A DNA stretch of 62,346 bases from Candidatus Zhuqueibacterota bacterium (GTDB taxonomy: Bacteria > Zhuqueibacterota > Zhuqueibacteria > Thermofontimicrobiales > Thermofontimicrobiaceae): assembly GCA_016783825.1 (NCBI GenBank), contig JADHVV010000004.1:1-62346 (forward strand), read 5' to 3'. The position numbers were made by a program, and so were the translations under genes. The notes under the pieces are model-generated. The model ran no database searches. It had not been told where the DNA came from and saw only the letters and a program-made list of their open reading frames with translations. Positions 4,869 through 60,775 of this stretch are shown in pieces (the stretch's first letter is position 1; every line of letters starts with the position of its first letter).

Positions 4869-5420
4869 GGGGATTCCTTTCATTTTGACAGCTTTATAAA
4901 CCTTATCTTTTACAATATATTGCAACGTAAATTTCCAATGTAATCTAAATGTAATTATAGTGCCAAACTTGTCAAGGTTTAGTAAAGCTGTTTGCCGTTT
5001 TAAACTGAAACTCGAAACCTTAATAAGTCAATTTAATAATTTTTTTATGAAATTCAAAGTGGTTTTTTAAGCTGGGAAATAATGGTAACATCTGTGTGCG
5101 GCGCTCAACCTGTGTTTTCCACAACCAGACCAGGCTATAGCTAAAAAGCGAAAAGAATGTGGTATCGTATTTTTTTTCTTATTTACTATTTTTATCTGCA
5201 CTTTGAACATGATTTTTTTATATTGGTAATAACACACCACGAATTCCGACCACAGAACGACTACGATACTCGAATACGAGTTATTCACGCTGAATTGAAT
5301 CGAATAGAAATTTTGGACAGCATTAAGACAATACATTGGTTGAGCGAATTATTATTGAGAAGGTTATGCAACCCGTATTCATGCGTGGTTGACTGTTTTC
5401 CTTAGTTCCTAAACAGTGAA

Positions 5421-5453
5421 ATTCTTGCACAATGGGCAAGAATATTTTTTCTT
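5421..5453 (+). terminator. Possible orphan intrinsic terminator
   Basis: ATTCTTGC-acaatgg-GCAAGAAT is followed by ATTTTTTCTT. No convincing + strand gene lies upstream; the 82-aa ORF 5157-5405 looks non-coding. Confidence 0.3.
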
Positions 5454-5465
5454 CTAAACAAAAGA

Positions 5466-5538
5466 ATAGAAAGGTACAGGTAAAGGCAAAGGTAAAGTTT
5501 TCTATTTTTCTTTACCTTTACCTCTGCCTTTACCTTAT
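5466..5538. repeat. Word-hairpin (GGTAAAGG words)
   Basis: Left arm ATAGAAAGGTACAGGTAAAGGCAAAGGTAAAG pairs with right arm CTTTACCTTTACCTCTGCCTTTACCTTAT. The same arms bound the large element at 23133-23558. Confidence 0.85.
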
Positions 5539-5588
5539 ACAATTTTTAAAATTGAATCGTTGTTGAAAACATAATGGCGTAAACATCT

Positions 5589-5610
5589 ATTCTGGTTCAT
5601 CCAGGTTAGG
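5589..5610 (+). repeat. Conserved 22-nt boundary motif ATTCTGGTTCATCCAGGTTAGG
   Basis: Related copies occur at 23075-23096 (reverse complement), 37497-37519 and 58511-58532, with a diverged copy at 37599-37624. Confidence 0.75.
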
Positions 5611-5779
5611 ATAGGATCAATAATTGCGGACGATTCTTTCTCTTCAGGAGATAGTTTCTCTTTAATAAAAAATGTGCCGCAACTGTGACAAAGATGTTTT
5701 ATTCTCATTAATATAAATGAATACCGTTTTTGGTGGGATAATTTAAAAAAATTAGTAACTATTCAGCATTATTACCAGT

Positions 5780-5937
5780 GTCATTCTGAGGGAGCTTGCG
5801 ACCGAAGAATCTCCACGATATTCAAACTTTTGTTAAAATAATTCGAGATTCCTGTATAGTCACATTTAAAAAATAAGGAAATACAGACTATGCTTCACTT
5901 CCCAACATCACTACCCCCCTCCATCGTTCAGAATGAC
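5780..5937 (+). repeat. GTCATTCTGAGGGAGC...TCAGAATGAC palindromic element, long form
   Basis: Termini GTCATTCTGA/TCAGAATGAC are perfectly complementary. A near-identical inverted copy lies at 58308-58465, a short form at 17985-18100 and a partial copy at 15419-15464. Flanks (GTAACTATTCAG ... CTGAACAGTTAC, about 5755-5966) are also inverted repeats. Confidence 0.9.
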
Positions 5938-5994
5938 ATTGATATAACAGACAGCTGAACAGTTACAAAAATTATTAAATAACAGAGGCAAGAG

Positions 5995-6369
5995 ATGTTA
6001 AAATTAGTGAAACGACTTCATGCGGTGAATGAGGAATTAAACAAAATCAAGATTGAATTAGCAAATTGCTGGGAACCTTTCCTAAACGATTTACAGCAGG
6101 TAAATCAGGAATTTCAGATGATGAGTGAAACAATGATTTGTACGCGTTTGACTGATATTTTACATAAATATGAAATATACAAAATTGTTAACGTTCCCGC
6201 TTCAAATGGTCACCCGGTGCAACTGGACCGGGAAATTCCATCGCCGAAAGATGTTTTGAAAAATAATGAATTCGTCAAAGAAATCGCACAGCACCGCATA
6301 GCTGATGGGTATGCACAAAAAATCCATGAATTATTAAACAAGATAATTCAAAAAGCGAAAAGATTGTGA
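5995..6369 (+). CDS. Hypothetical small helical protein, first gene of the TPR-CHAT operon
   Basis: 124-aa ORF with GAGG-like RBS upstream. Its stop lies 28 nt before the next gene. I recognise no family motif. Confidence 0.6.
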   Translation: MLKLVKRLHAVNEELNKIKIELANCWEPFLNDLQQVNQEFQMMSETMICTRLTDILHKYEIYKIVNVPASNGHPVQLDREIPSPKDVLKNNEFVKEIAQHRIADGYAQKIHELLNKIIQKAKRL

Positions 6370-6397
6370 TTTAGTAAAATTACCGCGAGGGGAAATT

Positions 6398-7696
6398 ATG
6401 CAGGATTTAGCCATTTTTCGTTATATCGTTTTTACTTTGTGGGATGTCCGGGATACTGAAGACGGGCGAAAAATAAAAACAGAAGCGATGTGGACAGGTA
6501 TACAACAAGTGTGGAAGGGGGTTAATCAGCAAATTGGAAACCGGCAAATAACAACACTGAAGCCTAATTCACTGGAAATCAATCGCCGGGAAAGCGTTCG
6601 CCTTGCCAGTATCGGCTGGAGTAATACAGGGGGATTTTCCTATTCTCTGGAAATCCGCCAAATTTACGACAGCGTTTATTTTCAAATCGGGATATCCCGT
6701 ACTGGAGATTCAGAACCGGATGATTTGAAAGACCTGGTGCGGAAAATTTATAAATTCAAACCTTCTATTAATGCCGAAAAGCACCCGGTACAGGTGGGTG
6801 ATGTGTGTTGTTATTATGCTGAAAATCCTGATAATCCTACTCCCGACCAATTCAATAGCCTGGCACGGAATGTTATTTTAAGCCCTGATGACACATTAGT
6901 AGATGAGATAAAAATCTATCCATTTGAATGGGGATACCTGGCAATCCCGGATTCCTATCGTTATCCCTTCCCGATTCTTGTCACTCCTTTAAATAACAGA
7001 CCATCGCTTAAAAAATCAGCTTTATTCGTCCATTCAGATGTTCCACGTTTAGTTTTGTATTTTATGAAACTTCGACGGGATTTTTTAGAATTTGAAAGAG
7101 AGCGACCCCTGGTAGAAATAAATGAACAGAAATTGGCAAAGCACCTTCTTGGAGTACCGGAAAAAGCAACGCTTGAAGTTCATGAAAACCAGGTTATTCA
7201 TCTTACCAAAAGGCACAACTTTTTAATTGAGGATGTCGGCAGGATCAAGCAGCGGATGAGTGCAATGAAGGCGAACATTAAGAATCTTATTCTGCTCAAC
7301 CAGGACATCCGGGGTACGCGACAAAACACGGAATTGGAAAATTTCCTGCTCACTGATGCCAGAATTGCTATTGAACAAATCGAACGTGATCTTGAATTTT
7401 TCAAAGCCCGTGATGAAGAAGCGCATCTTACTCTGGAAACCCTCAACGTGCTGATAAATGTGGAACGTGGTAAAATGCAGCGCGAACGGGGTGAGTATGA
7501 ACAGCTATTTGTTAAAATACTCGCTATCATCGGCATAGTGCTGGCTTTAATTGACGGTTTTTCTGCAGAGTTTAAGTGGTACACAAAGGTAGCAATTGTT
7601 GCCGGTGGGCTAATCCTGGGATTGACTTGGTATTTGAAAGCGCGAAGAAAAATAAAGAGAGAAAGTAAAAAGCACAATGTCAAAAATTCAATTTGA
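6398..7696 (+). CDS. Hypothetical protein: unassigned N-terminal domain, long coiled coil, C-terminal two-helix transmembrane hairpin with basic tail (CHAT-associated)
   Basis: Strong RBS GAGGGG precedes the ATG. A heptad-rich region spans about aa 235-365. TM helices are LFVKILAIIGIVLALIDGF and VAIVAGGLILGLTWYL (nt about 7505-7636), then KARRKIKRESKKH. The 3' end overlaps the CHAT gene start by 20 nt. Confidence 0.75.
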   Translation: MQDLAIFRYIVFTLWDVRDTEDGRKIKTEAMWTGIQQVWKGVNQQIGNRQITTLKPNSLEINRRESVRLASIGWSNTGGFSYSLEIRQIYDSVYFQIGISRTGDSEPDDLKDLVRKIYKFKPSINAEKHPVQVGDVCCYYAENPDNPTPDQFNSLARNVILSPDDTLVDEIKIYPFEWGYLAIPDSYRYPFPILVTPLNNRPSLKKSALFVHSDVPRLVLYFMKLRRDFLEFERERPLVEINEQKLAKHLLGVPEKATLEVHENQVIHLTKRHNFLIEDVGRIKQRMSAMKANIKNLILLNQDIRGTRQNTELENFLLTDARIAIEQIERDLEFFKARDEEAHLTLETLNVLINVERGKMQRERGEYEQLFVKILAIIGIVLALIDGFSAEFKWYTKVAIVAGGLILGLTWYLKARRKIKRESKKHNVKNSI

Positions 7697-10600
7697 ACTT
7701 CTCAGAATAAGAAGCCAGACAGAGCTTCAGCAATTTACTCAAAAAATTTTATTTAATCGGAGTTCGCAACGGCTTCCCACGGAAGGTGAATTACTTGATT
7801 TTGTCAATGAGCTTTGCCCGGCGGGAAAAAGATTATATAATGATGAAAAATATCAACAATCGATTTTGCTTTTAACTCATGCGCAGAAAATTGCCAAAGT
7901 TATGAAGAATGAAACGGTTGAAACAAAAATTCTCTGCGATTTAGGTTTCCCGTATTATTTCCTGAAAGAATATTCCCAGACAATTTTGATTTGGGAACGG
8001 GCTTATAATTTAAGCCGCCAGGTAAATGATATTTCTGCGATGGCGGAGATTGGCTTTTTTCTTAGTAAAGTTTTTCGGGAAATAAATGCTTTTTCTCGAT
8101 TAACCAAATGTGCCGAACTGGCATTGAGAGATTATCGGAAGCTGCAAAATTCTACTGTCGACTCTGTAAAGGCTCTGAAATTTAAAGATAAAATTGGCCA
8201 GCTTTTCGACGCGCTCGGTTTGGGTTACAGCTATGCAGGCCCAATTGATGCGTCGATACTAAATTACCAAAAGTCTATTAAAATAGCTGCCGGGCTTGGT
8301 AATTTTGTGGAGAAACGAAACCGTCTGGGGAATTTGGCCCGGACTTATCTTGTCGCTGGTGAAAAAGAACTCGCGTTAGACACCTATTTTGACGCATTGA
8401 AAATTAAAACCAATAATCCTGAAAGTGACCAAAATGCGCAAATTCTGGGAAACATGAGCCTGGGCATTATTTACCGGGAACTGGCAAAGCTGACTGATGC
8501 TGAAAGTCATTTTGGAAAAGCGTTGGGAGTCGCCAGCAAAATCGGGGATAATCAGAATATGAACCGTTTATTGAATAGCCTTGGGATTGTTTTTCGTGAT
8601 TGCGGAGATTTAGAAAAAGCTTATAAGCATTACCAACTTGGATATAAAATTGCCCGGACAACAGGTGATGAAATAGGTGAAGGCGATTCACAGGGAAATA
8701 TCGGAAATTATTTTTATCAAACCGGACAACCGGCAAAAGCTCAACCGTACTACGAAAAAGCCCTTCAGATTTCCAGAAAATATAACGATACTCTACTCAT
8801 TTCCCGATGGACCGGTAACCTGGGAAATGTCTGTTCACAGCTCGGTAAGCAGTCGAATGCAGTAGAATTTTACCGGGAAGCTTTGGCTTTGAGTCAGGAA
8901 ATTCATGATAAGGATCATGAATATTTGTGGAATTATAATTTAGGCGTAATTTACCGGGACCAATTTAAAAATCCGGAAGAAGCCCGCTGCTGCTTTCTTC
9001 GCGCCATTTTATGTTTAAATGATTTGCGCCGCGGTATTCGAAATGAAGATTTCAGCCGTTCATTCGGTGAAAACAAAGTGTTTGTGTACCAGGATATGAT
9101 CGACGTATGTCTGGAATTATCGGGTAGAAAACCGGCGTTCCTTGATGATGCTTTGGCTTATGCGGAGGATGCTAAAGGTTACACCCTAATGCGGATGATT
9201 ACCGAATCAGGTATTCAACCATCACCTGTAGTACCTGAAAGCTTACGAAAGGAATTTTTTCTTTCTCAGAATCGTATTCATCATTTTGAAAATAAATTAA
9301 GTGAACCTTCGTTTTTAAAAAATAATGATATTGAGACTGGAACCGATGGTAACCGGTTACCTGGTTTAACCTCTCAACAGCAGGAACACCATCGACAGGA
9401 CTGGCTGCAAAAACTCACAAAAGCCAAAGTGAAACAACGGAATATACTTCTGAAAATAGCCCAATATGATCCGGCATTTGCGGAAATTTCAAATCAGGAA
9501 AAAATTTCGATAAAATCGGTCCAGGAATTTTTAGATCAGAATTATCCTGGAAAAATGATTGTGTTCTTTTCTGTTACCCGTGATTATTTAAATATTTTTC
9601 TGGTGACTGCCCAGGAAATTGTTACCGTCAGGCTTCCTGAATTACATGAGTCAGCATTGAATAAACTCGTTAATGATGAATGGCTTAATCCTTATGAAAT
9701 TTACCGGAATAAAAAATCCGTTAACACCTGGCAACAGGATATTGATAAATTTTCAGTCACAATGTATAATAAATTCTGGTTAAAGATCGAACCGCATATT
9801 ACTAAGGAAAATGTGGATGGGCTTATAATTATACCCAGCGGTGTTCTTTATTTACTGCCGTTTCATTTAATCCGATTACCTTCAGAACAGAATGAGCAAG
9901 CGCGCTATTTATCAGATGATTTTCAGATTGCCTACGCACCTAACTTTCGAATGCTAAAATTGAGTCAGTCAAAAGGTGACCTTCCTTTTTTGGAAACTAA
10001 TTTTTTGGGAATTTGTAATCCTGATCGGAGCCTTTTATGGGCTGATCTTGAAATGGAGGTGATATCCAACTTTTTTTCTGAATCGCTTGTTCTCTGGCAT
10101 GAAACAGCGCAGCGGAAGAGAATCTTAGAAATAATTAACCGCTATTCAGTAGTCCACTTTTCGACCCATGCAGAAGGGGCAACGTTTTCCGAACTTAATG
10201 TCGGGATGTTAACTGCTGATGGTTTTTTGAGTATGCATGATATTTTTACTCATGTTAAATTCCCACAATCGGCAATGACTGTTTTAAGCGCTTGCGAAAC
10301 CGGCATGATTAAGCCGGACAAGGGCGATGAATACATTGGATTGCCGGCAGCATTTCTGTATGCGTCTGTGCCATCAGTTGTTAGTAGCCTTTGGAAGGTT
10401 GAGGACGCTTCGACGGCGCTGCTCATGATCAAGTTTTATGAAAATTTAAAAACGAATAACATGAGCAGAATTCAAGCATTAAGCGATGCGCAGAATTGGC
10501 TCAGGACAGTGACTAATGCTGAATTAATTCTGTATCTTGAACCCATTACTGATGAAATGGAAAATGAAATTCGAGAATTAAAACAAAAAAAGCAAGAAGT

Positions 10601-10745
10601 TATAGAAGAAATTAATCGCAAGGAGTCTATTATAAGCAATTGTCGTGAATACATTTTGGATTTGAAATGGGAAGATGAAAACACTTGTCGCTATTCAAAT
10701 CCGTATTACTGGGGGGCATTTGTCATTTCCGGTCGCATGGAGTAA
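7677..10745 (+). CDS. TPR-repeat CHAT-domain (caspase-like) peptidase
   Basis: The N-terminal roughly 470 aa carry TPR_12-like repeats (LGIIYRELAKLTDAESHFGKAL, LGIVFRDCGDLEKAYKHYQLGY, IGNYFYQTGQPAKAQPYYEKAL). The C-terminal CHAT core has catalytic His in VVHFSTHAEG (His831, nt 10167-10169) and Cys in VLSACETG (Cys873, nt 10293-10295), then YWGAFVISG at the end. Confidence 0.9.
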   Translation: MSKIQFELLRIRSQTELQQFTQKILFNRSSQRLPTEGELLDFVNELCPAGKRLYNDEKYQQSILLLTHAQKIAKVMKNETVETKILCDLGFPYYFLKEYSQTILIWERAYNLSRQVNDISAMAEIGFFLSKVFREINAFSRLTKCAELALRDYRKLQNSTVDSVKALKFKDKIGQLFDALGLGYSYAGPIDASILNYQKSIKIAAGLGNFVEKRNRLGNLARTYLVAGEKELALDTYFDALKIKTNNPESDQNAQILGNMSLGIIYRELAKLTDAESHFGKALGVASKIGDNQNMNRLLNSLGIVFRDCGDLEKAYKHYQLGYKIARTTGDEIGEGDSQGNIGNYFYQTGQPAKAQPYYEKALQISRKYNDTLLISRWTGNLGNVCSQLGKQSNAVEFYREALALSQEIHDKDHEYLWNYNLGVIYRDQFKNPEEARCCFLRAILCLNDLRRGIRNEDFSRSFGENKVFVYQDMIDVCLELSGRKPAFLDDALAYAEDAKGYTLMRMITESGIQPSPVVPESLRKEFFLSQNRIHHFENKLSEPSFLKNNDIETGTDGNRLPGLTSQQQEHHRQDWLQKLTKAKVKQRNILLKIAQYDPAFAEISNQEKISIKSVQEFLDQNYPGKMIVFFSVTRDYLNIFLVTAQEIVTVRLPELHESALNKLVNDEWLNPYEIYRNKKSVNTWQQDIDKFSVTMYNKFWLKIEPHITKENVDGLIIIPSGVLYLLPFHLIRLPSEQNEQARYLSDDFQIAYAPNFRMLKLSQSKGDLPFLETNFLGICNPDRSLLWADLEMEVISNFFSESLVLWHETAQRKRILEIINRYSVVHFSTHAEGATFSELNVGMLTADGFLSMHDIFTHVKFPQSAMTVLSACETGMIKPDKGDEYIGLPAAFLYASVPSVVSSLWKVEDASTALLMIKFYENLKTNNMSRIQALSDAQNWLRTVTNAELILYLEPITDEMENEIRELKQKKQEVIEEINRKESIISNCREYILDLKWEDENTCRYSNPYYWGAFVISGRME

Positions 10746-10839: not shown

Positions 10840-13800
10840 ATGAAATTTTCAAAACCCACCGGATTCTTTTTGTTGTTCCTGCTTTTCTTATATCAAATCG
10901 GATTTTCACAAAATAAAATTGACGCGGAGCTCAGAAACTTAATTCTTCTTCAGGAAACCAAATCATCATTATTTAAAGGCAAATATGTGAACTCGATTCC
11001 GCTAGAATCCAAAAACAATGTGATAATGACCAGTGTTATTGTACAAAGTCAAAATCACGATTTTTCGATGGTGACTCAAGCAGGTGGCATTTTGCGCACT
11101 ATTGCCGGACCGTACGCCACAGCGCTGGTACCAGTGAATAAAATTAAAGTAATCGCCGGGAAATCGGGCGTTGATTACGTTGCAGCCACATATAAGCTCA
11201 AAACATTAAATGATGTCGCGACTGATATAACCGGTGCTGACCAAGCCAATGAAATGGGATACACCGGCGAAGATGTAATCATTGGTGTGGTAGATACTGG
11301 AATTGATGTGAAACATCCCGGGTTTATCGGGCCAAATGGCACCCGAGTGCTCTATTTGTGGGATCAAACCGCGGCTGGTAGTGGTACGGATTATCCGGTT
11401 TACGATTACGGAATTGAATGGACCAAAGACCAAATCGACAATGGTCAATGTACTTCAAAAGATGAGGATGGTCACGGAACACACGTAGCAGGTTCCATCG
11501 CCCAGTACATGCCGCCGGAACAAGTCCATGAACACCCTTACAACGGTGGATTAACCAAAGCCAACCTGGTAATTGTAAAAACTAATTTTGATGATGCAAC
11601 CACCAAGCTGGACGCCATCAGTTATATTTTCGAAAAAGCTGCTGAGCTGGGAAAACCTGCAATAGTCAATTTGAGCATTGGTAGTCAAATCGGTCCACAC
11701 GACGGTACTGATCCCATGTGTGCCTTTTATGACCATTTAACTGGCCCGGGGCGCTTAATCTTCCAGTCAGCTGGAAATGATGGTGCTTCCAAAATTCACC
11801 ACATGGTCACTGCTGACGCGAATGGGGAAGAAATGGAATTTGTGCTTGAAAAAGAAGCGGAATTCCTATCTTTTGATATGTGGTACGACGGTTCGAGCAG
11901 CGTACAGCTACAAGTATTTGGGCCGGGAAATAATTTGTTGTTAACTGCTCCTGCCGGTTCTAAAACAGAAGATACTGGGGTGGACACGCCCTATGGTCAG
12001 ATTTATATTTCTAATGCAGCTTATGGGCCTGTATTTTATAATGGTGATAAGCGTATTTATATGCGACTTACCGAAGAGGCAAAAGCCGGTCAGTGGAAAC
12101 TCAGGTTTTCGGCGTCAACTCCAACTGTTGTTCACGCCTGGATGGCTCTCGGTAATAAAGACGCTGGTTTCGAATTTAGAACCGACGACAATCACTTCAC
12201 ATTGATTAATGATGCCTGTAGTCGCAGTGTGATTGCGGTCGGTGCAATGATTTCTAAAAATAGATTCAAAGTGCGAGATTATGAAGGCTATCCGGATGGA
12301 CATGAATTTGTTTTTGACGACCTGATTCTTGGCAAAATTGCTGATTACAGTTCCGGTGGACCCACGCGGGATGGCCGGAAAAAGCCGGAACTCGTTGCCC
12401 CCGGAACCTTTATCGGTTCGGCTATGTCTGGACAAATGGATATGAGCGCAAGTTTCGGAACCCTTGATGATTTCCGTTCGATTGGCTCAATTATTCCGTT
12501 GTGGCCGACTGAATTTCAGGGTATTTTGAAAGGAACCAGTATGTCAGTGACTAGCGCCACAGGTAGCGGGGGAATTGCCGCATCACTGAATAATGAGATC
12601 ACTCCCGAGATGTACAAGGAATTGTGCGAGCATGGCGTCGTCACAACCGATCTTGAAGTCAATCCTGTGCTGAAATCAACTACGGTAAAACGGGAATGGA
12701 ATTACCTGACAGGTTATGGTTTGCTCAATATGGAAAAATTAATTAACCGGAAAGTATCACTGGTTTCCTGTGGTCAAATCAATGGAAACAGACTTGAATT
12801 AACGCTCAGCCATGAAGTCATTGGTGCAGATAACACAGCAAATTACCAAATTCAGGGGCCCACAAGTGTTTCGGTCGTTTCAGCTAGTGTTTCAGGGAAA
12901 ACGGTCAGCCTTGAATTAAACAAACCATTGAAAGAAGGATATCAGTATTCCCTAACAATTCAAAATATAATTGGTCTGGAAGAACCGGCAACAATTCCTA
13001 TTCAGAATCAGAAAGGAACTATTGTCGATTACCCTGCCATGGAAAATAATGTTTATTGGTCGCTGGCAAACTCACCTTATTATATTCATAAAAATGTCGT
13101 GGTTTTCTCATATGCCCGGCTGAAAATCGAACCTGGCGCCCATCTTGTGTTTATGCCGGGAACAACTGCATTGTCCGGTTTGGAAATATCTGGGGCATTA
13201 GAGGCCCGCGGAACAGTTGATTCACCCATCATTTTTGAGCCGTATAAAGGATCTGGGATAACAGATTGGGCGGGTTTATATTTTTCAAGTAAAATTCCGA
13301 ACACTACCATAAGTCATTGCCGGATTTTTGGCGCTGAAATGGGAATAGCTTGCCTAAGTAACAATCTGACCGTTGAAAATTGTATTGTCGATAATTCGAC
13401 TGAAATTGGTATCTTAATTCAGAATTGTGCCCCGACTATTTTCCGAACGCAGATTATAAACACGAAAGGGGTGGATTTTGGTCAAGCGATTCAGCTCAGT
13501 GGCGCATTAAATTCACCTGTGTTGGAAAATTTGTCAATTCACAACAGTGTCACTGCCGGGATTGTCTGTTTTAATTCCAATCCTCAAATAACAAATTGTA
13601 TTCTATCGAAAAATTCTTACGGCGTATATTCCGATGGAGAGGCTGCCCCATCAATTACATATTCCAATGTTTGGGAAACCAGCGGAATCGAGTACGTCAA
13701 TGTTTCGCCCGGCACTGGCTGCATTTCTTCAAATCCGCAATTCATGAATTCGGCTAATAATGATTTACGGCTCAAAGATGATTCTCCTTGCGTGGATCAG

Positions 13801-14454
13801 GGAAATCCAGCTCAAATAGATTTGGATGGTTCCCGCATCGATATGGGTGCTCTGCCGCTGGTGAGTGTACCGGATTTGATATTTCCCGAAGATGGTACCA
13901 TTAATCACCGGACAGATTTGGAATTGAAATGGCAGAAGAATAAAGGCGGTATTGAATTTGAAGTAGTAATTGCCACTGATGATCAATTTAAAAACGTCCA
14001 CGATTCGACGAGAACAACTCAGACATCATTTAAGCCAAATGAATTGGATATTGAAACTACATATTTTTGGCAAGTCAAAGCCTTTAACGGATACTGCTGG
14101 AGCGATTGGGGCCAGGCACTATTTACTACACCAGTCCGGCAATTCGTTTCGGAAGTGCCTGATATATTCGCGCTTGATCAGAATTATCCGAATCCGTTTA
14201 ATCCGACTACGCAAATTAATTACCAACTTCCCCAAGCTGCCAATATTCAAATTCAGATTTACAATTTGCATGGACAGTTGATTCAAGAAATTTTGAACAA
14301 AGAAAAAAGCGCCGGTAAACACAGCGCTGTTTGGAATTGTGTGAATCAAAGAGGGGGCAAAGTTGCCAGCGGGATTTATTTTTATATGTTGACCGCGAAA
14401 AATGATCAACAAATCTTGTTTCAACAAAACAAAAAAATGGTGATGATGAAATAA
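10840..14454 (+). CDS. Secreted S8 (subtilisin-family) serine peptidase with parallel beta-helix repeats, an FN3-like domain and a T9SS-type C-terminal sorting domain
   Basis: Signal peptide MKFSKPTGFFLLFLLFLYQIGFS. Catalytic triad contexts are VGVVDTGID, DGHGTHVAGS and GTSMSVTSATG. Beta-helix repeats (NCIVDNSTEIGILIQNC, NSVTAGIVCFNSNPQITNC). C-terminal YPNPFNPTTQINYQLP...GIYFYML matches the por-secretion tail pattern. Confidence 0.9.
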   Translation: MKFSKPTGFFLLFLLFLYQIGFSQNKIDAELRNLILLQETKSSLFKGKYVNSIPLESKNNVIMTSVIVQSQNHDFSMVTQAGGILRTIAGPYATALVPVNKIKVIAGKSGVDYVAATYKLKTLNDVATDITGADQANEMGYTGEDVIIGVVDTGIDVKHPGFIGPNGTRVLYLWDQTAAGSGTDYPVYDYGIEWTKDQIDNGQCTSKDEDGHGTHVAGSIAQYMPPEQVHEHPYNGGLTKANLVIVKTNFDDATTKLDAISYIFEKAAELGKPAIVNLSIGSQIGPHDGTDPMCAFYDHLTGPGRLIFQSAGNDGASKIHHMVTADANGEEMEFVLEKEAEFLSFDMWYDGSSSVQLQVFGPGNNLLLTAPAGSKTEDTGVDTPYGQIYISNAAYGPVFYNGDKRIYMRLTEEAKAGQWKLRFSASTPTVVHAWMALGNKDAGFEFRTDDNHFTLINDACSRSVIAVGAMISKNRFKVRDYEGYPDGHEFVFDDLILGKIADYSSGGPTRDGRKKPELVAPGTFIGSAMSGQMDMSASFGTLDDFRSIGSIIPLWPTEFQGILKGTSMSVTSATGSGGIAASLNNEITPEMYKELCEHGVVTTDLEVNPVLKSTTVKREWNYLTGYGLLNMEKLINRKVSLVSCGQINGNRLELTLSHEVIGADNTANYQIQGPTSVSVVSASVSGKTVSLELNKPLKEGYQYSLTIQNIIGLEEPATIPIQNQKGTIVDYPAMENNVYWSLANSPYYIHKNVVVFSYARLKIEPGAHLVFMPGTTALSGLEISGALEARGTVDSPIIFEPYKGSGITDWAGLYFSSKIPNTTISHCRIFGAEMGIACLSNNLTVENCIVDNSTEIGILIQNCAPTIFRTQIINTKGVDFGQAIQLSGALNSPVLENLSIHNSVTAGIVCFNSNPQITNCILSKNSYGVYSDGEAAPSITYSNVWETSGIEYVNVSPGTGCISSNPQFMNSANNDLRLKDDSPCVDQGNPAQIDLDGSRIDMGALPLVSVPDLIFPEDGTINHRTDLELKWQKNKGGIEFEVVIATDDQFKNVHDSTRTTQTSFKPNELDIETTYFWQVKAFNGYCWSDWGQALFTTPVRQFVSEVPDIFALDQNYPNPFNPTTQINYQLPQAANIQIQIYNLHGQLIQEILNKEKSAGKHSAVWNCVNQRGGKVASGIYFYMLTAKNDQQILFQQNKKMVMMK

Positions 14455-14503
14455 GATGTAAATATAAGTTTGTGAGGCGATTTAACTGTTTGAGAATTAA
14501 TAA

Positions 14504-14540
14504 AACCAAAAAGGAGAGAATTATTCTCTCCCTTTTGGTT
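14504..14540. terminator. Bidirectional hairpin terminator between convergent genes
   Basis: AACCAAAAAGGAGAGAA-tta-TTCTCTCCCTTTTGGTT lies between the S8 peptidase stop (14454) and the stop of the minus-strand lipoprotein gene (14562). Confidence 0.65.
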
Positions 14541-14561
14541 CAGAAACTTTTCCCCAATACG

Positions 14562-14765
14562 TTATTTCTCTTCTTCCTGGGGAGCTTCTTCTTCTTCTGC
14601 TTCACCTTCCGGTGGTGCTTCTGGTGCCGTTACAGTTGTATCGACCGGAGCTTGTTCAATTTCCTCAGTCTCTACTTGCTGTTCTGCTTCCTGTTTTTTT
14701 GCGCAGCCATTAAAAAGAACTAATGGCAATGTGAGCAAAAGAAGAATGGCAACGAATTTTTTCAT
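14562..14765 (-). CDS. Small acidic lipoprotein (67 aa)
   Basis: Strong RBS GGGAGGTG lies 7 nt upstream of the ATG. The signal peptide ends LFNGC. The mature part is Glu/Pro/Ala-rich. Confidence 0.6.
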   Translation of the reverse strand: MKKFVAILLLLTLPLVLFNGCAKKQEAEQQVETEEIEQAPVDTTVTAPEAPPEGEAEEEEAPQEEEK

Positions 14766-14963: not shown

Positions 14964-15464
14964 GATTCCTGTATAGTCACATTATAGTATTACAAGTTCA
15001 ATCTTTGTTTTTTGTGCAAAAGTTTTTAAATCCAGAACAATAAACTCATACAACGAAAAGGCTGAGGCGAAGGCTAAGGCGGAGTAAGGTAGAAGATTAA
15101 AGGATTAAGGATTTTTTTTCCTTCGCCTTCGCCTCAGCCTTTGCCTGCACTTTAGTGCGCTGGGTTACTTAAATGAATACAGACTATAGTATTACCAGTT
15201 GAATCATTGTTCTTTTGCACTAAAGTATTAAAATTTATGCAGTTACCATATTATTTATAAAGGAAACACAGACTGTGCAAAAGTTTTTTTAACCCAGATC
15301 AATTAACTATTACATCGAAAAGGCTGAGGTGAAGGCTAAGGCGAAGCAAGATATAAGATTAAAGGATTAAGGATTTTCTTCCTTCGCCTTTGCCTCAGCC
15401 TGCACTTTAGTGCGCTGGGCTTCACTTCCCTAATTCACATGCACCCTCCCTCGATCAGAATGAC
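14964..15464 (+). repeat. Composite nested repeat: 5'-truncated GTCATTCTGAG-family element whose internal segment is interrupted by two AAGGCTGAGG word-hairpins
   Basis: AGATTCCTGTATAGTCAC (14964-) and CTTCACTTCCC...TCAGAATGAC (15419-15464) match the interior and right end of the 5780-5937 element. Hairpins lie at 15056-15142 and 15317-15400. The duplicated segment TATAGTATTAC.AGTT.AATC occurs at 14985 and 15185. Confidence 0.8.
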
Positions 15465-17984: not shown

Positions 17985-18100
17985 GTCATTCTGAGGGAGC
18001 TTGCGACCGAAGAATCTCCCCAAAATTAGCACTTTTGTTTAAATCATACGAGATTCTTCACTTCCCTACTTCACCAACCCCCTCCCTCGTTCAGAATGAC
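17985..18100 (+). repeat. GTCATTCTGAGGGAGC...TCAGAATGAC palindromic element, short form
   Basis: It has the same termini and inner stem GAAGAATCTC/GAGATTCTTC as 5780-5937 but lacks the roughly 50-nt internal CTGTATAGTCAC...ACAGACTATG segment. Confidence 0.9.
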
Positions 18101-33402: not shown

Positions 33403-34362
33403 GTGAACAAAAACAAAAAGATTATTAAGCCCAAACAACTTTCAAATGGCGCTACGATTGGTGTTGTTTCCCCGGCAAGTCGTCCATCAGATGAGCAAAA
33501 ATACAGCAACGGGATTCAGTACTTGAAAAATTTGGGCTACAAAGTAGTAGAGAGTCGGCATGTTCTGGATAGCTACGGCTACCTGGCAGGTAAAGACCGG
33601 GACAGGATTGATGATTTGAATTTAATGTTTCGCGACTCCCAAATAGATGCTGTTTTCTGTTCCCGGGGCGGATATGGCGTACCGAGAATAATAGATGAGA
33701 TAGACTTTAATTCGCTTCAAAACGATCCAAAAATTTTTGTCGGCTACAGCGACATTACCTCACTCAATTTAGCGATATTGGCGAAAACAGGTTTGATTTC
33801 TTTTTCGGGCCCGATGGTAGCTGTTGAAATGGGCGCGGGAATTGACCAAATTACAGAGCAAAATTTTTGGAAAACTTTAAAGACATCAGAACCGATGGGT
33901 ATTTTGGAGAATCCTTCGGACTTACCAATACAAGTTGTTAAATCCGGCAGAGCAAAAGGGAGGCTTTTAGGCGGCTGTCTCTCTCTCATTAATGTCGTTT
34001 TGGGAACGCCATTTTGTCCCGATTTTAATGAAACAATTTTATTCATCGAGGATATTGAAGAGGAACCCTATCGAGTTGACCGCTACCTGGCGCAGTTGAA
34101 AATGGCGGGAGTTTTGGATCGGATTTCAGGGTTGGTAATCGGACAATTTGTTGATTGTATCCCCGGAGATCCTGAAAAGCCAAATTTGAAACTTGAACAA
34201 GTATTCGACGATTACTTTTCGGATTTGGATATTCCAATCATCTCAAATTTTGCTTATGGGCATGTGCCGGTAAAACACACTTTACCTGTTGGAGTACAAG
34301 TTGAATTGGATACGGAGAATGGGGGATTGATCATATTAGAAAGTGCTGTTAATGAAGGGTAA
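33403..34362 (+). CDS. LD-carboxypeptidase (peptidase S66, muramoyltetrapeptide carboxypeptidase-like)
   Basis: IGVVSPAS, the nucleophile context GYSDITSL, FIEDIEEEPYRVDR and YGHVP. GTG start. Confidence 0.85.
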   Translation: MNKNKKIIKPKQLSNGATIGVVSPASRPSDEQKYSNGIQYLKNLGYKVVESRHVLDSYGYLAGKDRDRIDDLNLMFRDSQIDAVFCSRGGYGVPRIIDEIDFNSLQNDPKIFVGYSDITSLNLAILAKTGLISFSGPMVAVEMGAGIDQITEQNFWKTLKTSEPMGILENPSDLPIQVVKSGRAKGRLLGGCLSLINVVLGTPFCPDFNETILFIEDIEEEPYRVDRYLAQLKMAGVLDRISGLVIGQFVDCIPGDPEKPNLKLEQVFDDYFSDLDIPIISNFAYGHVPVKHTLPVGVQVELDTENGGLIILESAVNEG

Positions 34363-34463
34363 TTAGGTAATTTGGTAATAAGGAAATTAGGGTAATAGGG
34401 TAATAAAAAATTTATTGGCACCACGAATTCCCAATTACCCAATAAACTAATTACCCAGTTATC
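34358..34463. repeat. Word-hairpin (GGGTAATT words)
   Basis: GGGTAATTAGGTAATTTGGTAATAAGGAAATTAGGGTAATAGGGTAAT pairs with ATTCCCAATTACCCAATAAACTAATTACCCAGTTATC. The left arm includes the stop codon of the upstream gene. Confidence 0.85.
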
Positions 34464-37377: not shown

Positions 37378-37624
37378 AAGGTAATTTGGTAATAAGGGGA
37401 TTAGGTAATTTGGGTAATAGGGAAATTGGGTAATATAAAATTTTTAGCTTTAGTAATTCCCAATTACCAATTATACTAATTACCCAGTTACCTTTTGGTT
37501 CTGGCTTGTCCAGGTTAGGTAATAAAGGAATTGGGTAATAAAAAAAAACAGCTTTAGTAATTCCCAATTACCAAATACACTAATTACCCAGTTACCTTAT
37601 TGGTCTGCCTTGTCCAGCCTGGGG
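37378..37624. repeat. Tandem pair of GGGTAATT word-hairpins, each followed by a copy of the 22-nt boundary motif
   Basis: Unit 1 is hairpin 37378-37492 plus GGTTCTGGCTTGTCCAGGTTAGG (37497-37519). Unit 2 is hairpin 37518-37598 plus ATTGGTCTGCCTTGTCCAGCCTGGGG (37599-37624). Both right arms read TAGTAATTCCCAATTACCAA.TA.ACTAATTACCCAGTTACCTT. Confidence 0.85.
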
Positions 37625-58307: not shown

Positions 58308-58465
58308 GTCATTCTGAACGAGGGAGATGGGTAGTGATGTTGGGAAGTGAAGCATAGTCTGTATTTCCTTATTTTTTAAATGTGACTATACAGGAATCTC
58401 GTATTATTTTAACAAAAGTTTGAATGTTTGGGAGATTCTTCGGTCGCAAGCTCCCTCAGAATGAC
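58308..58465 (-). repeat. Inverted near-identical copy of the long GTCATTCTGAG element at 5780-5937
   Basis: It reads as the reverse complement of 5780-5937 with a handful of substitutions. Flanks (about 58275-58495) are also shared. The boundary motif ATTCTGGTTTGTCCAGGTTGGG follows at 58511-58532. Confidence 0.9.
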
Positions 58466-58621: not shown

Positions 58622-60466
58622 ATGATCGCAGGCATACTAAATAGAGATAGAGAAAAAGTAATTTCAAATGAAGAAATTTATTCGCTGTTTGATTTGCAGG
58701 AAGTACAAAAGGATCAAATAAAAATAGCTGCAAATAGAAATTTCGCTGCTGCAATAGTAGATGAAGCATTTGAAAATATTTCAGAAGTGTGGCAAAATGA
58801 AAAGAATGTTGTAGCATTTTCAGGCAATGTTTTTAATAGGAATGAGATAACAGGTTTATCTGATACCGGACGACCTTTTACTCAAATTTTAGCTGATCAA
58901 TTCACCGACAAAAAAACCGCTCTTTTCAACGAACTGAATGGAAGCTATAGTTTATCGATCTGGAACAGCGAATTACAGCAGCTTGTTTTAACAGGTGATC
59001 ATTTCGGGATTGAACCGTTATACTATTTTTGGGATGAAGAAAAATTGATCTTTGCTTCGTCCATCAAAGCAATATTACGTCATCCTGATGCAAAAGCTGA
59101 AATAGACTTTGAAGCGCTTCATACATATTTGTTGTTTAATTACAATCCGCGACAGGAAACGCTGATAGCAGGGATTAAAAGGTTATGTCCCGGTTATTAT
59201 TTGAAATTTGAAAAGAATAATTTAACAACAGAACAGTATTGGTATTTATCATTTTTGCCCGGTAAAGAAAAAACAGAAAATCAATACATCGAAGAACTGC
59301 TTCCGTTGCTGAAAAAAAGCATAGAAATGCGAATCCCGGACTCTGAAACCCATGGCGCATTTTTGAGCGGGGGAATGGACTCAAGCTCAATTGTTGGATT
59401 GATGAGCCCGATGGTAAAAGGAAAAATTCATACTTTTTCTTTTCGATGTAAAGGCAAATCGTTTGATGAGTCCCATTACGCAAACATTGTTTCTTGCAGG
59501 TATAACACGGAACATCATTTGGTGGAATATTCGCCGCAAGAGGTGTTGTCCATTGGTGAAATCGTTGAGTACATGGATGAGCCATTTTGCGACATCGGAA
59601 TAGAGGTCGCCTCATATATTTTAGGTCGCGCAGCACAAGATAAGATCAATTATGTGTTGACCGGAGATGGTGGGGATGAATTGTTTGCCGGGCATCCTGT
59701 TTACCAGGCAGATGAAGTGGCAAGGAAGTTTTCTAAAATTCCCAGACCGCTTCAAAAAATGATGACATCTGCTTTCAGCCTGTTTCCTGATACGGACAAA
59801 AAGAAAAGTTTTGCAGTTAAGGCACAAAGATTTGCTTACAGTTACGGTTTCTCCGAAAAACTTTTCAGCAACCGCTGGCGGATTTATTACAACGAACCAG
59901 AATTATTAGCGCTGTTTAGACCCGAATATTCCGGCAATGTAAAAGAAACAAATCCCCTAAAAGATATAATGGCTATTTATGATGAAGCGGATGGTAATGA
60001 TTTTTTGAGCAAGACTTTATATGGTGATTATTTTACAGTTGTTAATTTTTACCTGAGAAGAATGCAGCTGTTAAGAAAATTTGGGATTGAGGGAAGAATA
60101 CCCATGTTTGATCCGCGGTTAGTCGAATTTGCGGCAAAAATTCCTTCGCATCTTAAGTTGCGCGGTTCGGAAACAAAATATATTTTACACAAAACAATGG
60201 CCGGCATTTTACCAGGTGAAATCGTTTTTCGGAAAGATAAATTAGGACACAGTGTGCCGTTTAAAAATTGGCTTCGTGATGTTCCGGAAATAAGAAATTT
60301 TATTATGGATGTTCTTTCAGAGAGTACAATAAAAAGGCGAGGATATTTTGATAATAATTTTGTCCAACGCTTATTAACCGATCATTTCAGCAGAAAGAAA
60401 AACAATTCACACCGGCTATGGGCGTTGCTGGTACTGGAACTATGGATGCAGAAAAATATTGCTTGA
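58622..60466 (+). CDS. Asparagine synthase-family protein lacking the N-terminal Cys nucleophile
   Basis: It starts MIAGIL where AsnB has MCGI. An in-frame TGA at 58592-58594 precludes a longer N-terminus. The PP-loop LSGGMDSS and the synthetase-domain pattern TGDGGDELFAGHPVY are retained. Confidence 0.85.
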   Translation: MIAGILNRDREKVISNEEIYSLFDLQEVQKDQIKIAANRNFAAAIVDEAFENISEVWQNEKNVVAFSGNVFNRNEITGLSDTGRPFTQILADQFTDKKTALFNELNGSYSLSIWNSELQQLVLTGDHFGIEPLYYFWDEEKLIFASSIKAILRHPDAKAEIDFEALHTYLLFNYNPRQETLIAGIKRLCPGYYLKFEKNNLTTEQYWYLSFLPGKEKTENQYIEELLPLLKKSIEMRIPDSETHGAFLSGGMDSSSIVGLMSPMVKGKIHTFSFRCKGKSFDESHYANIVSCRYNTEHHLVEYSPQEVLSIGEIVEYMDEPFCDIGIEVASYILGRAAQDKINYVLTGDGGDELFAGHPVYQADEVARKFSKIPRPLQKMMTSAFSLFPDTDKKKSFAVKAQRFAYSYGFSEKLFSNRWRIYYNEPELLALFRPEYSGNVKETNPLKDIMAIYDEADGNDFLSKTLYGDYFTVVNFYLRRMQLLRKFGIEGRIPMFDPRLVEFAAKIPSHLKLRGSETKYILHKTMAGILPGEIVFRKDKLGHSVPFKNWLRDVPEIRNFIMDVLSESTIKRRGYFDNNFVQRLLTDHFSRKKNNSHRLWALLVLELWMQKNIA

Positions 60467-60775
60467 TTCTGGATACTGGATACTTGATGCTTGATGCTTG
60501 ATACTTGATGCTTGATGCTTGATACTTGATACTTGATGCTTGATGCTTGATACTTGATGCTTGATACTTGATGCTTGATACTTGTTGCTGGATACTGGTT
60601 GCTGGATACTGGTTACTTGATTCTGGTTACTTGATTCTGGTTACTTGATTCTGGTTGCTGGCTGCTGGTTACTGGATTCTGGCTGCTGGATACTGGTTGC
60701 TGGATACTTAATGCTGGTTGGGATGGGGGTATCCAGAAACAAGCATCGAGTATCAAGTAACCAGCACACCAGCAA
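60467..60775. repeat. Degenerate 8-nt-periodic array (CTTGATGC/CTTGATAC then CTGGTTGC/CTGGATAC/CTGGTTAC/TTGATTCT units) ending in a short complementary arm
   Basis: Roughly 30 consecutive 8-nt units run from the stop codon of the upstream gene to about 60730. GTATCCAGAAACAAGCATCGAGTATCAAGTAACCAGCACACCAGCAA (about 60729-60775) is complementary to the unit types. Confidence 0.85.

Follow-up and report, generated by a model that had tools for sequence, protein, structure and literature searches.

What does a caspase-like protease do when it is encoded in one tight cluster with a membrane protein that has no recognised family? This question is raised by a 62,346-nucleotide (nt) stretch of DNA from Candidatus Zhuqueibacterota bacterium (assembly GCA_016783825.1, contig JADHVV010000004.1), which was analysed at its full length and is called the window below. 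Three open reading frames (ORFs) follow one another on its plus strand:

5995..6369, plus strand: ORF1, 124 amino acids (aa), a small helical protein, predicted to be cytoplasmic
6398..7696, plus strand: ORF2, 432 aa, with a predicted alpha/beta domain, three long helices, a hairpin of two transmembrane (TM) helices and a basic tail
7677..10745, plus strand: ORF3, 1022 aa, a caspase-like protein with tetratricopeptide repeats (TPRs) and a CHAT domain, predicted to be cytoplasmic

We re-verified the coordinates of the three ORFs and their orientation in the window. ORF1 and ORF2 are separated by 28 nt, the stop of ORF2 is overlapped over 20 nt by ORF3, and Shine-Dalgarno-like sequences precede ORF1 (AGAGG) and ORF2 (GAGGGG); the co-directional, tightly packed arrangement described in a first-pass annotation of this DNA was found as stated there. 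The three genes very probably form one functional unit, and the best reading of that unit, to which we give a probability of about 45%, is a membrane effector with a CorA-type fold that is gated by the protease.

The protease was examined by profile searches and by alignment to solved structures. ORF3 matched the Pfam CHAT model PF12770 with E=7.9e-47 and 160.5 bits (cutoff 24) over residues 695-1020, corresponding to model positions 6-289 of 289, and it matched many Pfam TPR models over approximately residues 190-445 (TPR_12, E=7e-38). The PDB matches of residues 218-433 were LGN/Pins and designed TPR proteins. The features of this gene are as follows:

8244..9011, plus strand: ORF3 TPR array, approximately residues 190-445, by Pfam TPR models
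9759..10736, plus strand: ORF3 CHAT domain, residues 695-1020, PF12770
10167..10169, plus strand: codon of the predicted catalytic His831, the second His of HFSTHA, a motif that starts at residue 827
10293..10295, plus strand: codon of the predicted catalytic Cys873, in LSACETG, which starts at residue 870

In phmmer alignments to solved chains, ORF3 residues 829-924 aligned with residues 583-680 of the D. ishimotonii Csx29 chain (7x8a_D), gapless up to the cysteine, with His831 on Csx29 residue 585 and Cys873 on Csx29 residue 627, the two residues that we take to be the catalytic dyad of Craspase. Moreover, the dyad motifs HF(S/A)(T/C)H and LSACET were intact in all eight complete syntenic CHAT proteins that were compared, and a full-length ORF3 ortholog with 36% identity (E=1e-177) was found in L010, a related metagenome-assembled genome (MAG; loci are numbered with an L and related proteins with a P). 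By the model cutoff and the canonical positions of the dyad, ORF3 belongs to the CHAT protease family (caspase/separase superfamily, clan CD), and protease activity is predicted for it. The Pfam matches and the Csx29 alignment thus agree with the first reading of a TPR array joined to a CHAT domain with intact His831 and Cys873, and the two residues do stand at the catalytic positions. Neither a signal peptide nor a TM segment was identified in ORF3. The NCBIfam Csx29 model NF041237 scored 43.4 bits, below its cutoff of 300 and on the CHAT part only, and PADLOC returned generic TPR models for this protein and nothing else.

ORF2 had at first been left without an assignable motif, and this was confirmed: it matched no Pfam or NCBIfam model, its sole PADLOC match (PDC-M40B, E=0.0072) was insignificant and lay in the helical region, and no housekeeping family was found for it by sequence. 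An exhaustive HMMER search of 1.84 billion representatives at E<1e-3 showed a family of 63 representative clusters, 16 of which were reached at E<1e-30, and most members are full-length proteins of 400-450 aa. A word-indexed homolog search returned only ORF2 itself and a chimeric fragment when ORF2 was the query, and three proteins when its 13 closest relatives were used. The family is real, rare and patchy, and it lacks a Pfam, NCBIfam or PADLOC model. The JGI label 'DnaJ-domain-containing protein 1' that some relatives carry was rejected, there being no Pfam DnaJ match. One further relative, P0002, is a 282-aa protein on an ENA contig of 1324 nt, in which an N-terminus like a LON substrate-binding domain, an ORF2-like piece and a CTP-transferase-like C-terminus follow one another. 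Its middle part matches residues 308-409 of ORF2 with 84% identity, which shows that another sample contains a close ORF2 relative; P0002 itself most likely arose as a chimera in assembly or gene calling.

In an alignment of 40 family sequences, all members share one architecture: the N-terminal domain is followed by a long helical region, and the C-terminal part consists of two hydrophobic helices and ends in basic residues. Positions that are invariant or nearly so include G134, G179, P216, K224, E263, Q327, D331 and R362. Hydropathy, the helices of the structural model and the family alignment together delimit the membrane part:

7493..7642, plus strand: ORF2 TM1-loop-TM2, residues 366-415

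TM1 spans approximately residues 366-387 and TM2 approximately residues 394-415, joined by an extracytoplasmic loop (LIDGFSAEFKW) and followed by a cytoplasmic tail rich in Lys and Arg. TM2 is less hydrophobic than TM1, yet it is conserved throughout the family. Because of the positive-inside rule, the N-terminal domain and the basic tail of ORF2 are placed in the cytoplasm. No signal peptide was detected on ORF1, on the large domain of ORF2 or on ORF3, and the main bulk of all three proteins is predicted to share the cytoplasmic compartment.

What kind of membrane protein is ORF2? The AlphaFold2 model built from the 40-sequence alignment reached a mean predicted local distance difference test score (pLDDT) of 88.7 and a predicted template modelling score (pTM) of 0.81. 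It consists of a mixed alpha/beta region (residues 1-197) and helices at 201-251, 259-304, 310-387, the last of which runs into TM1, and 394-431, which comprises TM2 and the tail. When this model was compared with the PDB by Foldseek, ranks 1-25 were all CorA/Mrs2 proteins, including Campylobacter CorA, with probabilities up to 0.99 and a best E=7e-4, these being scores of a single predicted monomer at TM-scores of 0.17-0.29. The elements of ORF2 stand in the same order as those of CorA, that is, a cytoplasmic alpha/beta/alpha domain, two long helices, a stalk that continues into TM1, a short loop, TM2 and a basic end. We consider a CorA-like fold probable from this model, and the topology makes a role of ORF2 as a membrane effector more concrete. 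Membership of the CorA family by sequence is not established: a search of PDB sequences with the ORF2 family profile did not find CorA and gave coiled-coil noise only. The GMN (GxN) motif at the end of TM1, by which the CorA/MIT superfamily of 2-TM-GxN metal ion channels is defined, is present in no family member, and ORF2 is unlikely to be an ordinary Mg2+ channel. At this place the loop reads DGF(S/A)(E/D) in the subfamily of the window and (A/V)FPEL-x-W in distant subfamilies; the FPEL-x-W of the latter resembles the MPEL-x-W that stands just after GMN in CorA (the E. coli loop is YGMNFEFMPEL). The earlier description of ORF2 as a membrane-anchored coiled coil holds as far as the long helices, the two C-terminal TM helices and the Lys/Arg tail are concerned, but the CorA/Mrs2 topology of the model points to more than that. 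The Foldseek viral library returned one giant-virus protein and nothing informative.

ORF1 matched no family in Pfam, NCBIfam or PADLOC, and its identity was approached through its position. We found a small ORF directly upstream of the ORF2 homolog in 45 of the 45 loci with enough upstream sequence. These ORFs encode 103-199 aa, mostly 112-160 aa, and usually overlap the ORF2 homolog by a few bases. A profile of this family that was built without the window sequence matched 49 of 2570 ORFs, all of which were positional upstream ORFs, with zero decoys, and it picked the ORF1 of the window (E=2.3e-5), indicating by sequence that ORF1 is a divergent member of a single family that is always paired with ORF2. 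In the family alignment, an N-terminal helical part with conserved W26 and F29 is followed by a variable linker, a C-terminal helix and a charged tail. A single-sequence AlphaFold2 model of ORF1, of low confidence (pLDDT 53), showed helices at residues 2-39, 45-58 and 91-123 and disorder at 59-83, consistent with the small helical protein of the first reading, here with a disordered middle. Arg79, at least 90% conserved and set in the motif R-x-x-S/T-S/A-P, is the only nearly invariant residue of the linker, where the pLDDT is below 50:

6229..6231, plus strand: ORF1 Arg79 codon, a candidate cleavage or contact site by inference

Since a conserved Arg in a disordered linker is what draws attention to this position, Arg79 is put forward, speculatively, as a candidate protease site or contact residue. 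At L026 (3063-5384), a 773-aa HEAT-repeat protein with a C-terminal ORF1-like domain (E=2.7e-7) is encoded directly upstream of the ORF2 homolog; here ORF1 is naturally fused to a repeat scaffold, at a locus without CHAT.

We then asked how constant the association with the TPR-CHAT protein is. Loci were gathered by exact-protein look-ups, a GTDB genome scan and a metagenome scan, and homologs of all three proteins were mapped on them; one metagenome scan, with alignment A3, gave nothing, and loci were obtained with A3 on genomes and with alignment A5 on metagenomes. The nearest relatives came from MAGs labelled KSB1, Calditrichaceae and 'Deferribacteres', which, along with the type IX secretion signals in the window, puts the organism in or near the FCB group. 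Clustering of the ORF2 homologs at 60% identity yielded 11 lineages, ten of them informative for the third gene, and TPR-CHAT lies directly downstream in five of these ten, at ORF2 identities down to approximately 22%. The linked lineages include some with a GC content of 62-65%, compared with 38% here. ORF2 or its homolog is followed immediately by a complete TPR-CHAT gene in the window, L010, L004/L005, L006, L016, L017, L018, L022, L052 and L053. In L014, L021, L029, L035 and L037 the next gene is a TPR-rich ORF broken by the contig end, and in L014, L021, L035 and L037 its N-terminal region is homologous to the complete TPR-CHAT proteins. Elsewhere the third gene encodes a PocR-GAF histidine kinase (L038/L039), a DUF559 endonuclease (L011) or a TPR-CsgG protein (L012); in L009 an ORF of 156 aa without assigned function and then a methyltransferase occupy this place, and in L026 nothing does. 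TPR-CHAT therefore adjoins ORF1-ORF2 in several deeply diverged lineages, as a synteny check of the first-pass annotation had called for. Its three-gene unit recurs in distant relatives, but the part that never varies is the ORF1-ORF2 core; TPR-CHAT, adjacent in about half of the lineages, is a frequent and ancient partner, probably a functional one, without being an obligatory neighbour.

Two further observations concern the composition of the cassette. At L019 (2086-6691) the third gene encodes a 1143-aa protein in which an Avs2-like STAND NTPase module (NCBIfam Avs2, E=2.4e-10; PDB match 9o4e) is joined to C-terminal TPRs, and close relatives of this locus carry TPR-CHAT; L019 may represent a swap of the sensor or a decayed or rearranged locus. 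In several contexts of the GC-rich lineage that otherwise differ, the gene just upstream of the cassette is transcribed divergently and encodes a large protein with a VWA domain, either VIT-VWA or VWA joined to a GATase1-like domain:

L004, 4617-7574: upstream VWA gene
L006, 4673-6922: upstream VWA gene
L052, 3670-5919: upstream VWA gene
L054, 1870-4119: upstream VWA gene

It was considered as a fourth component and rejected from the core, being absent in L053 and in the window; it may be an accessory component in the GC-rich clade.

How might the three proteins act together? In the reading that we favour, ORF2 would, like CorA, probably form an oligomeric ring with its large N-terminal domain on the cytoplasmic side, and ORF1 would be its constant small cytoplasmic partner. 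The TPR array would hold the protease in an inactive state until it binds a trigger or a partner; once activated, His831/Cys873 could cut ORF1, for which the linker around Arg79 is the candidate region, or the cytoplasmic domain of ORF2. Such a cleavage would release or open the ORF2 channel and let ions leak, and the cell would be arrested or killed by the loss of gradients, in the manner of abortive infection or another conflict system. The analysis establishes the gene arrangement, the domain identities, the intact and conserved dyad, the ORF1-ORF2 pairing, the recurrent CHAT linkage and the CorA-like fold of the predicted model, whereas oligomerisation, channel activity, the cleaved protein, the trigger and the biological role are inferred. 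The reading is favoured by the tight gene coupling, the pairing in 45 of 45 loci, the CHAT linkage, the intact dyad, the common compartment, the CorA-like model, the precedents compared below, the accessory behaviour of the cassette and the possible sensor swap in L019. Carried one step further, ORF1-ORF2 would be an unrecognised class of effector, a CorA-fold channel without the Mg2+ motif that is closed by a small partner and opened by TPR-CHAT cleavage, and would thus form a cell-death switch parallel to caspase-gasdermin pairs, possibly as a membrane-anchored offshoot of the CATRA systems (named for an association with caspases and with TPR repeats). This wider proposal is a tentative one and, on balance, doubtful.

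The genomic context was studied next to these protein features. On the opposite strand, 5′ of the operon, lie genes for a TPR-thioredoxin/AhpC lipoprotein, an HD phosphohydrolase and an ABC ATPase; on the 3′ side an S8 subtilase gene is followed by groES/groEL, HPPK, a deoxynucleoside kinase and other housekeeping genes, and a purF-like gene is also nearby. GC content is 35-43% throughout the window, with no compositional island. Domain and repeat scans of the window identified no CRISPR array, gasdermin, NTPase or nuclease gene adjacent to the operon, in agreement with the first-pass annotation. The operon had there been proposed as a candidate defence system, and this role is not supported: the neighbours are housekeeping genes, PADLOC gave no match, and no phage or plasmid copies were found by tblastn, in searches of 50,697 phage records with ORF2 and of 72,556 plasmids with its relative P0046 (ORF2 itself was not used as a plasmid query). 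Close relatives within the GC-rich lineage carry the cassette in four or more distinct chromosomal contexts, two metagenome samples each gave two contexts, and the copies in L005, L054 and L019 look fragmented or truncated. Rarity, patchiness, relocation and decay of this kind are typical of accessory or conflict genes, whereas the housekeeping neighbours point the opposite way. A groES/groEL and thioredoxin context is common to the window and L004; vertical inheritance with housekeeping genes was considered for it and rejected, because the GC content of the two differs by approximately 25% and close relatives of L004 carry the cassette elsewhere.

Several results weigh against a protease-gated CorA-fold effector. 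ORF1-ORF2 occurs without an adjacent CHAT gene in five of the ten informative lineages, and the protease is thus not obligatory, at least in cis; Arg79 is equally conserved in loci without CHAT, and the ORF2 homolog of L019 ends right after TM1 and has no TM2. The likeness to CorA comes from one predicted model with low TM-scores, the Pfam CorA model (PF01544) matched 0 of the 40 family members at E<=5, and hhalign gave a probability of 7.6% against E. coli CorA. Furthermore, PADLOC-DB v2.0.0 contained no significant match for ORF1 or ORF2 and generic TPR matches only for ORF3, and the window offers no defence island or mobile-element context. The structural resemblance could also be taken at face value, with ORF2 as a divergent CorA-type transporter of divalent cations, ORF1 as its regulator and TPR-CHAT as an unrelated neighbour. 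Such a transporter would account for the 25 top structural matches to CorA/Mrs2 Mg2+ channels, for the CorA-like hairpin of two TM helices with its basic tail and for the FPEL-x-W loop of the distant subfamilies. It is highly improbable all the same: the GMN/GxN motif is missing from the whole family, the sequence comparisons with CorA just given are negative, a general ion transporter would be far commoner than this family is, and an adjacent TPR-CHAT gene, overlapping or nearly so, persists at approximately 22% ORF2 identity, which would not be expected of unrelated neighbours.

The order of events could instead be reversed, ORF1-ORF2 sensing a disturbance of the membrane or envelope, or an ion signal, and activating whichever partner lies next to it, with the CHAT protease cleaving other cellular targets. 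The cytoplasmic domains of CorA proteins are ligand-sensing domains, ORF2 lacks the GMN motif that normal Mg2+ conduction needs, and what varies is the third position (TPR-CHAT, the histidine kinase of L039, the STAND-TPR protein of L019, or nothing) while ORF1-ORF2 stays constant. We nevertheless regard this order as unlikely, given that TPR arrays fused to CHAT are usually the sensing or partner-binding part, as in Craspase, separase and DdvA, that the histidine kinase and the other partners each occur in one lineage and may be unrelated neighbours, and that no other substrate candidate is encoded nearby. A third possibility leaves proteolysis of the membrane complex by CHAT in place and removes immunity from the picture: the module would serve envelope stress, development or division, in the manner of separase or of cyanobacterial HetF. 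The housekeeping neighbours (groES/groEL, HPPK, the deoxynucleoside kinase, the purF-like gene and the thioredoxin-TPR lipoprotein), the lack of PADLOC, phage and plasmid matches, the order ORF1-ORF2-CHAT-S8 subtilase repeated in the related MAG L010 and the frequent occurrence of ORF1-ORF2 without CHAT all speak for such a regulatory function. The great rarity and patchiness of the ORF2 family, the changes of context among close relatives and within two samples, the fragmented or truncated copies, the replacement of CHAT in L019 by an Avs2-like protein of antiviral type and a weak co-linear similarity of relatives to a CATRA conflict-system protein speak against it, and we consider it somewhat unlikely. 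A membrane effector gated by the TPR-CHAT protease remains our best reading after this comparison.

The surroundings of the operon contain several further features. Directly 3′ of ORF3 lies the subtilase gene:

10840-14454: S8 subtilase, 1204 aa, secreted, with beta-helix, fn3 and a type IX secretion C-terminal sorting domain

No convincing terminator was found between ORF3 and this gene, and the strongest hairpin, a bidirectional, terminator-like structure with an 18-bp stem, follows it at 14503-14541. The same S8 subtilase gene follows TPR-CHAT in L010, and a protein with a related C-terminus is encoded upstream of the ORF1 homolog in L011. We rejected the subtilase as a component of the system, as it is secreted cargo of type IX secretion and is kept only in the nearest relatives; its position next to ORF3 is probably local synteny, and co-transcription with ORF3 is possible. 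After the hairpin, a region of 1.3 kb extends to groES, in which the sole ORF is a small acidic, lipoprotein-like one (14562-14765, minus strand).

The intergenic stretch 5′ of ORF1 (4926-5994) is unusually long, at approximately 1.07 kb, and contains an imperfect 27-nt palindrome (5471-5497 / 5510-5536) that is 85% complementary and has no Rfam match; scanning the whole window for Rfam families and tRNAs gave nothing. The repeat GTCATTCTGAGGGAGC, dispersed over intergenic regions, was found in six copies, three exact and three with three mismatches, against 0.3 expected:

5780-5795: GTCATTCTGAGGGAGC copy
15449-15464: GTCATTCTGAGGGAGC copy
17985-18000: GTCATTCTGAGGGAGC copy
18085-18100: GTCATTCTGAGGGAGC copy
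58308-58323: GTCATTCTGAGGGAGC copy
58450-58465: GTCATTCTGAGGGAGC copy

The copies often form inverted pairs approximately 100-150 nt apart, which suggests an element like a repetitive extragenic palindrome (REP) or a miniature inverted-repeat transposable element (MITE). One copy lies approximately 200 nt upstream of ORF1 and has a partial inverted partner at 5928-5944. Farther away, a tandem array of the 14-nt unit TGCTTGATACTTGA occupies 60460-60715, with approximately 18 copies and 85% matches; it is intergenic, follows a gene that ends at 60466 and lends itself to reading in units of 28 or 42 nt as well. At 37413-37617, a 104-nt unit stands in two tandem copies (86% matches), flanked by short GGTAAT-rich repeats, and similar repeats were seen at 34356-34412.

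TPR-CHAT proteases are widespread in bacteria, and their substrates or roles are known in few cases, namely Craspase, the gasdermin-linked proteases and DdvA. The module described here is a compact three-gene case, in which an intact dyad, a constant two-protein membrane partner and a candidate cleavage region come together and in which the predicted fold of ORF2 points to a possible output, an ion flux through a CorA-like ring. If the proposed mechanism is true, caspase-like proteases would have a second route besides gasdermin pores by which to act on membranes, CorA-fold immune or cell-death effectors would extend beyond type III CRISPR, and the predicted CATRA-type systems would become accessible to experiment for the first time. 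Moreover, two protein families, ORF1-like and ORF2-like, have been defined that have no Pfam, NCBIfam or PADLOC model.

How does the module relate to described systems? CATRA systems were reportedly predicted by Burroughs and Aravind in 2020; the name CATRA is not used in the 2020 eLife paper. The operon had been taken at first for a configuration distinct from known systems. This was right in that no gasdermin or CRISPR is adjacent, but its separation from CATRA is not secure. In a relaxed scan, the Pfam model CATRA-C (PF20270, 'CASPASE and TPR Repeat-Associated C-terminal domain') gave sub-threshold matches to five of the 40 ORF2 members (best E=1.4e-3), and the NCBIfam model NF038357, possibly a CATRA model, matched three members, again below cutoff (best E=5e-4). 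Residues 238-339 of P0046 aligned with CATRA-C positions 35-137 of 137 at 17.7 bits (cutoff 24.6), and residues 214-347 of P0051 with NF038357 positions 217-342 of 344; both matches lie in the same helical region, are co-linear and reach the C-terminal end of the model, and coiled-coil composition could cause them. The ORF2 of the window matched neither CATRA-C nor the NCBIfam CATRA models even at E<=5. From these profile comparisons, a remote homology between ORF2 and CATRA proteins appears plausible, at roughly even odds.

A one-line description presents CATRA as conflict systems of three parts that depend on a caspase and have a variable effector (PMC8195603), and they are described as phyletically restricted (PMC12657218). 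The resemblance lies in a functionally uncharacterised protein that is linked in the genome to a TPR-bearing protease of the caspase superfamily, in a small, phyletically restricted cassette (PMC12657218), and in the genomic association with TPR-CHAT, here in five of the ten informative lineages. ORF2 differs in the stalk helix and the two-TM hairpin that lie beyond the CATRA-C-like region, and the constant third gene here is the small ORF1, in contrast to an effector that varies according to that one line (PMC8195603). Described TPR-CHAT proteases cleave a neighbouring protein, as Craspase does, or, as proposed for DdvA, themselves (PMC11506125). Craspase resembles the present case in being a cytoplasmic TPR-CHAT protease with the same dyad positions, encoded beside what is here the presumed substrate, and under the allosteric control that we propose for ORF3. 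By contrast, the window contains no CRISPR array, gRAMP/Cas7-11, Csx30, Csx31 or RpoE, ORF3 stays below the cutoff of the Csx29 model (43 vs 300 bits), and the partner, ORF2, is a membrane protein. DdvA likewise ties TPR-CHAT to a membrane-embedded signalling component with proteolysis proposed as the switch; its TPR-CHAT part is fused to the membrane protein, periplasmic and incomplete in its active site (PMC11506125), whereas ORF3 is a separate, predicted cytoplasmic protein with a complete dyad and no sigma/anti-sigma pair is present here.

On the membrane side, a CorA-family effector activated by SAM-AMP works in type III CRISPR defence (PMC10600005) and shares with ORF2 the divergent CorA-fold membrane output of a system of several genes, as proposed for ORF2, and a large cytoplasmic regulatory domain. 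It is triggered by a nucleotide made by Cas10 and not by a protease, and it is recognisable as CorA by sequence, which ORF2 is not; Cas10, NrN and the SAM-AMP lyase are absent here. Gasdermin systems have in common with the module, as we propose it, a caspase-superfamily protease beside a membrane-damaging protein that is activated by cleavage. They differ in that neither ORF1 nor ORF2 has a PADLOC or Pfam gasdermin match and that ORF2, with its predicted CorA-like fold, would already be an integral membrane protein instead of the soluble precursor of a pore. In the literature, we came across no account in which a CHAT or caspase-like protease is paired with a membrane protein of CorA fold. 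The logic of the module, a caspase-superfamily protease with TPRs and a dedicated partner, is one that the predicted CATRA systems already share with the gasdermin and Craspase systems.

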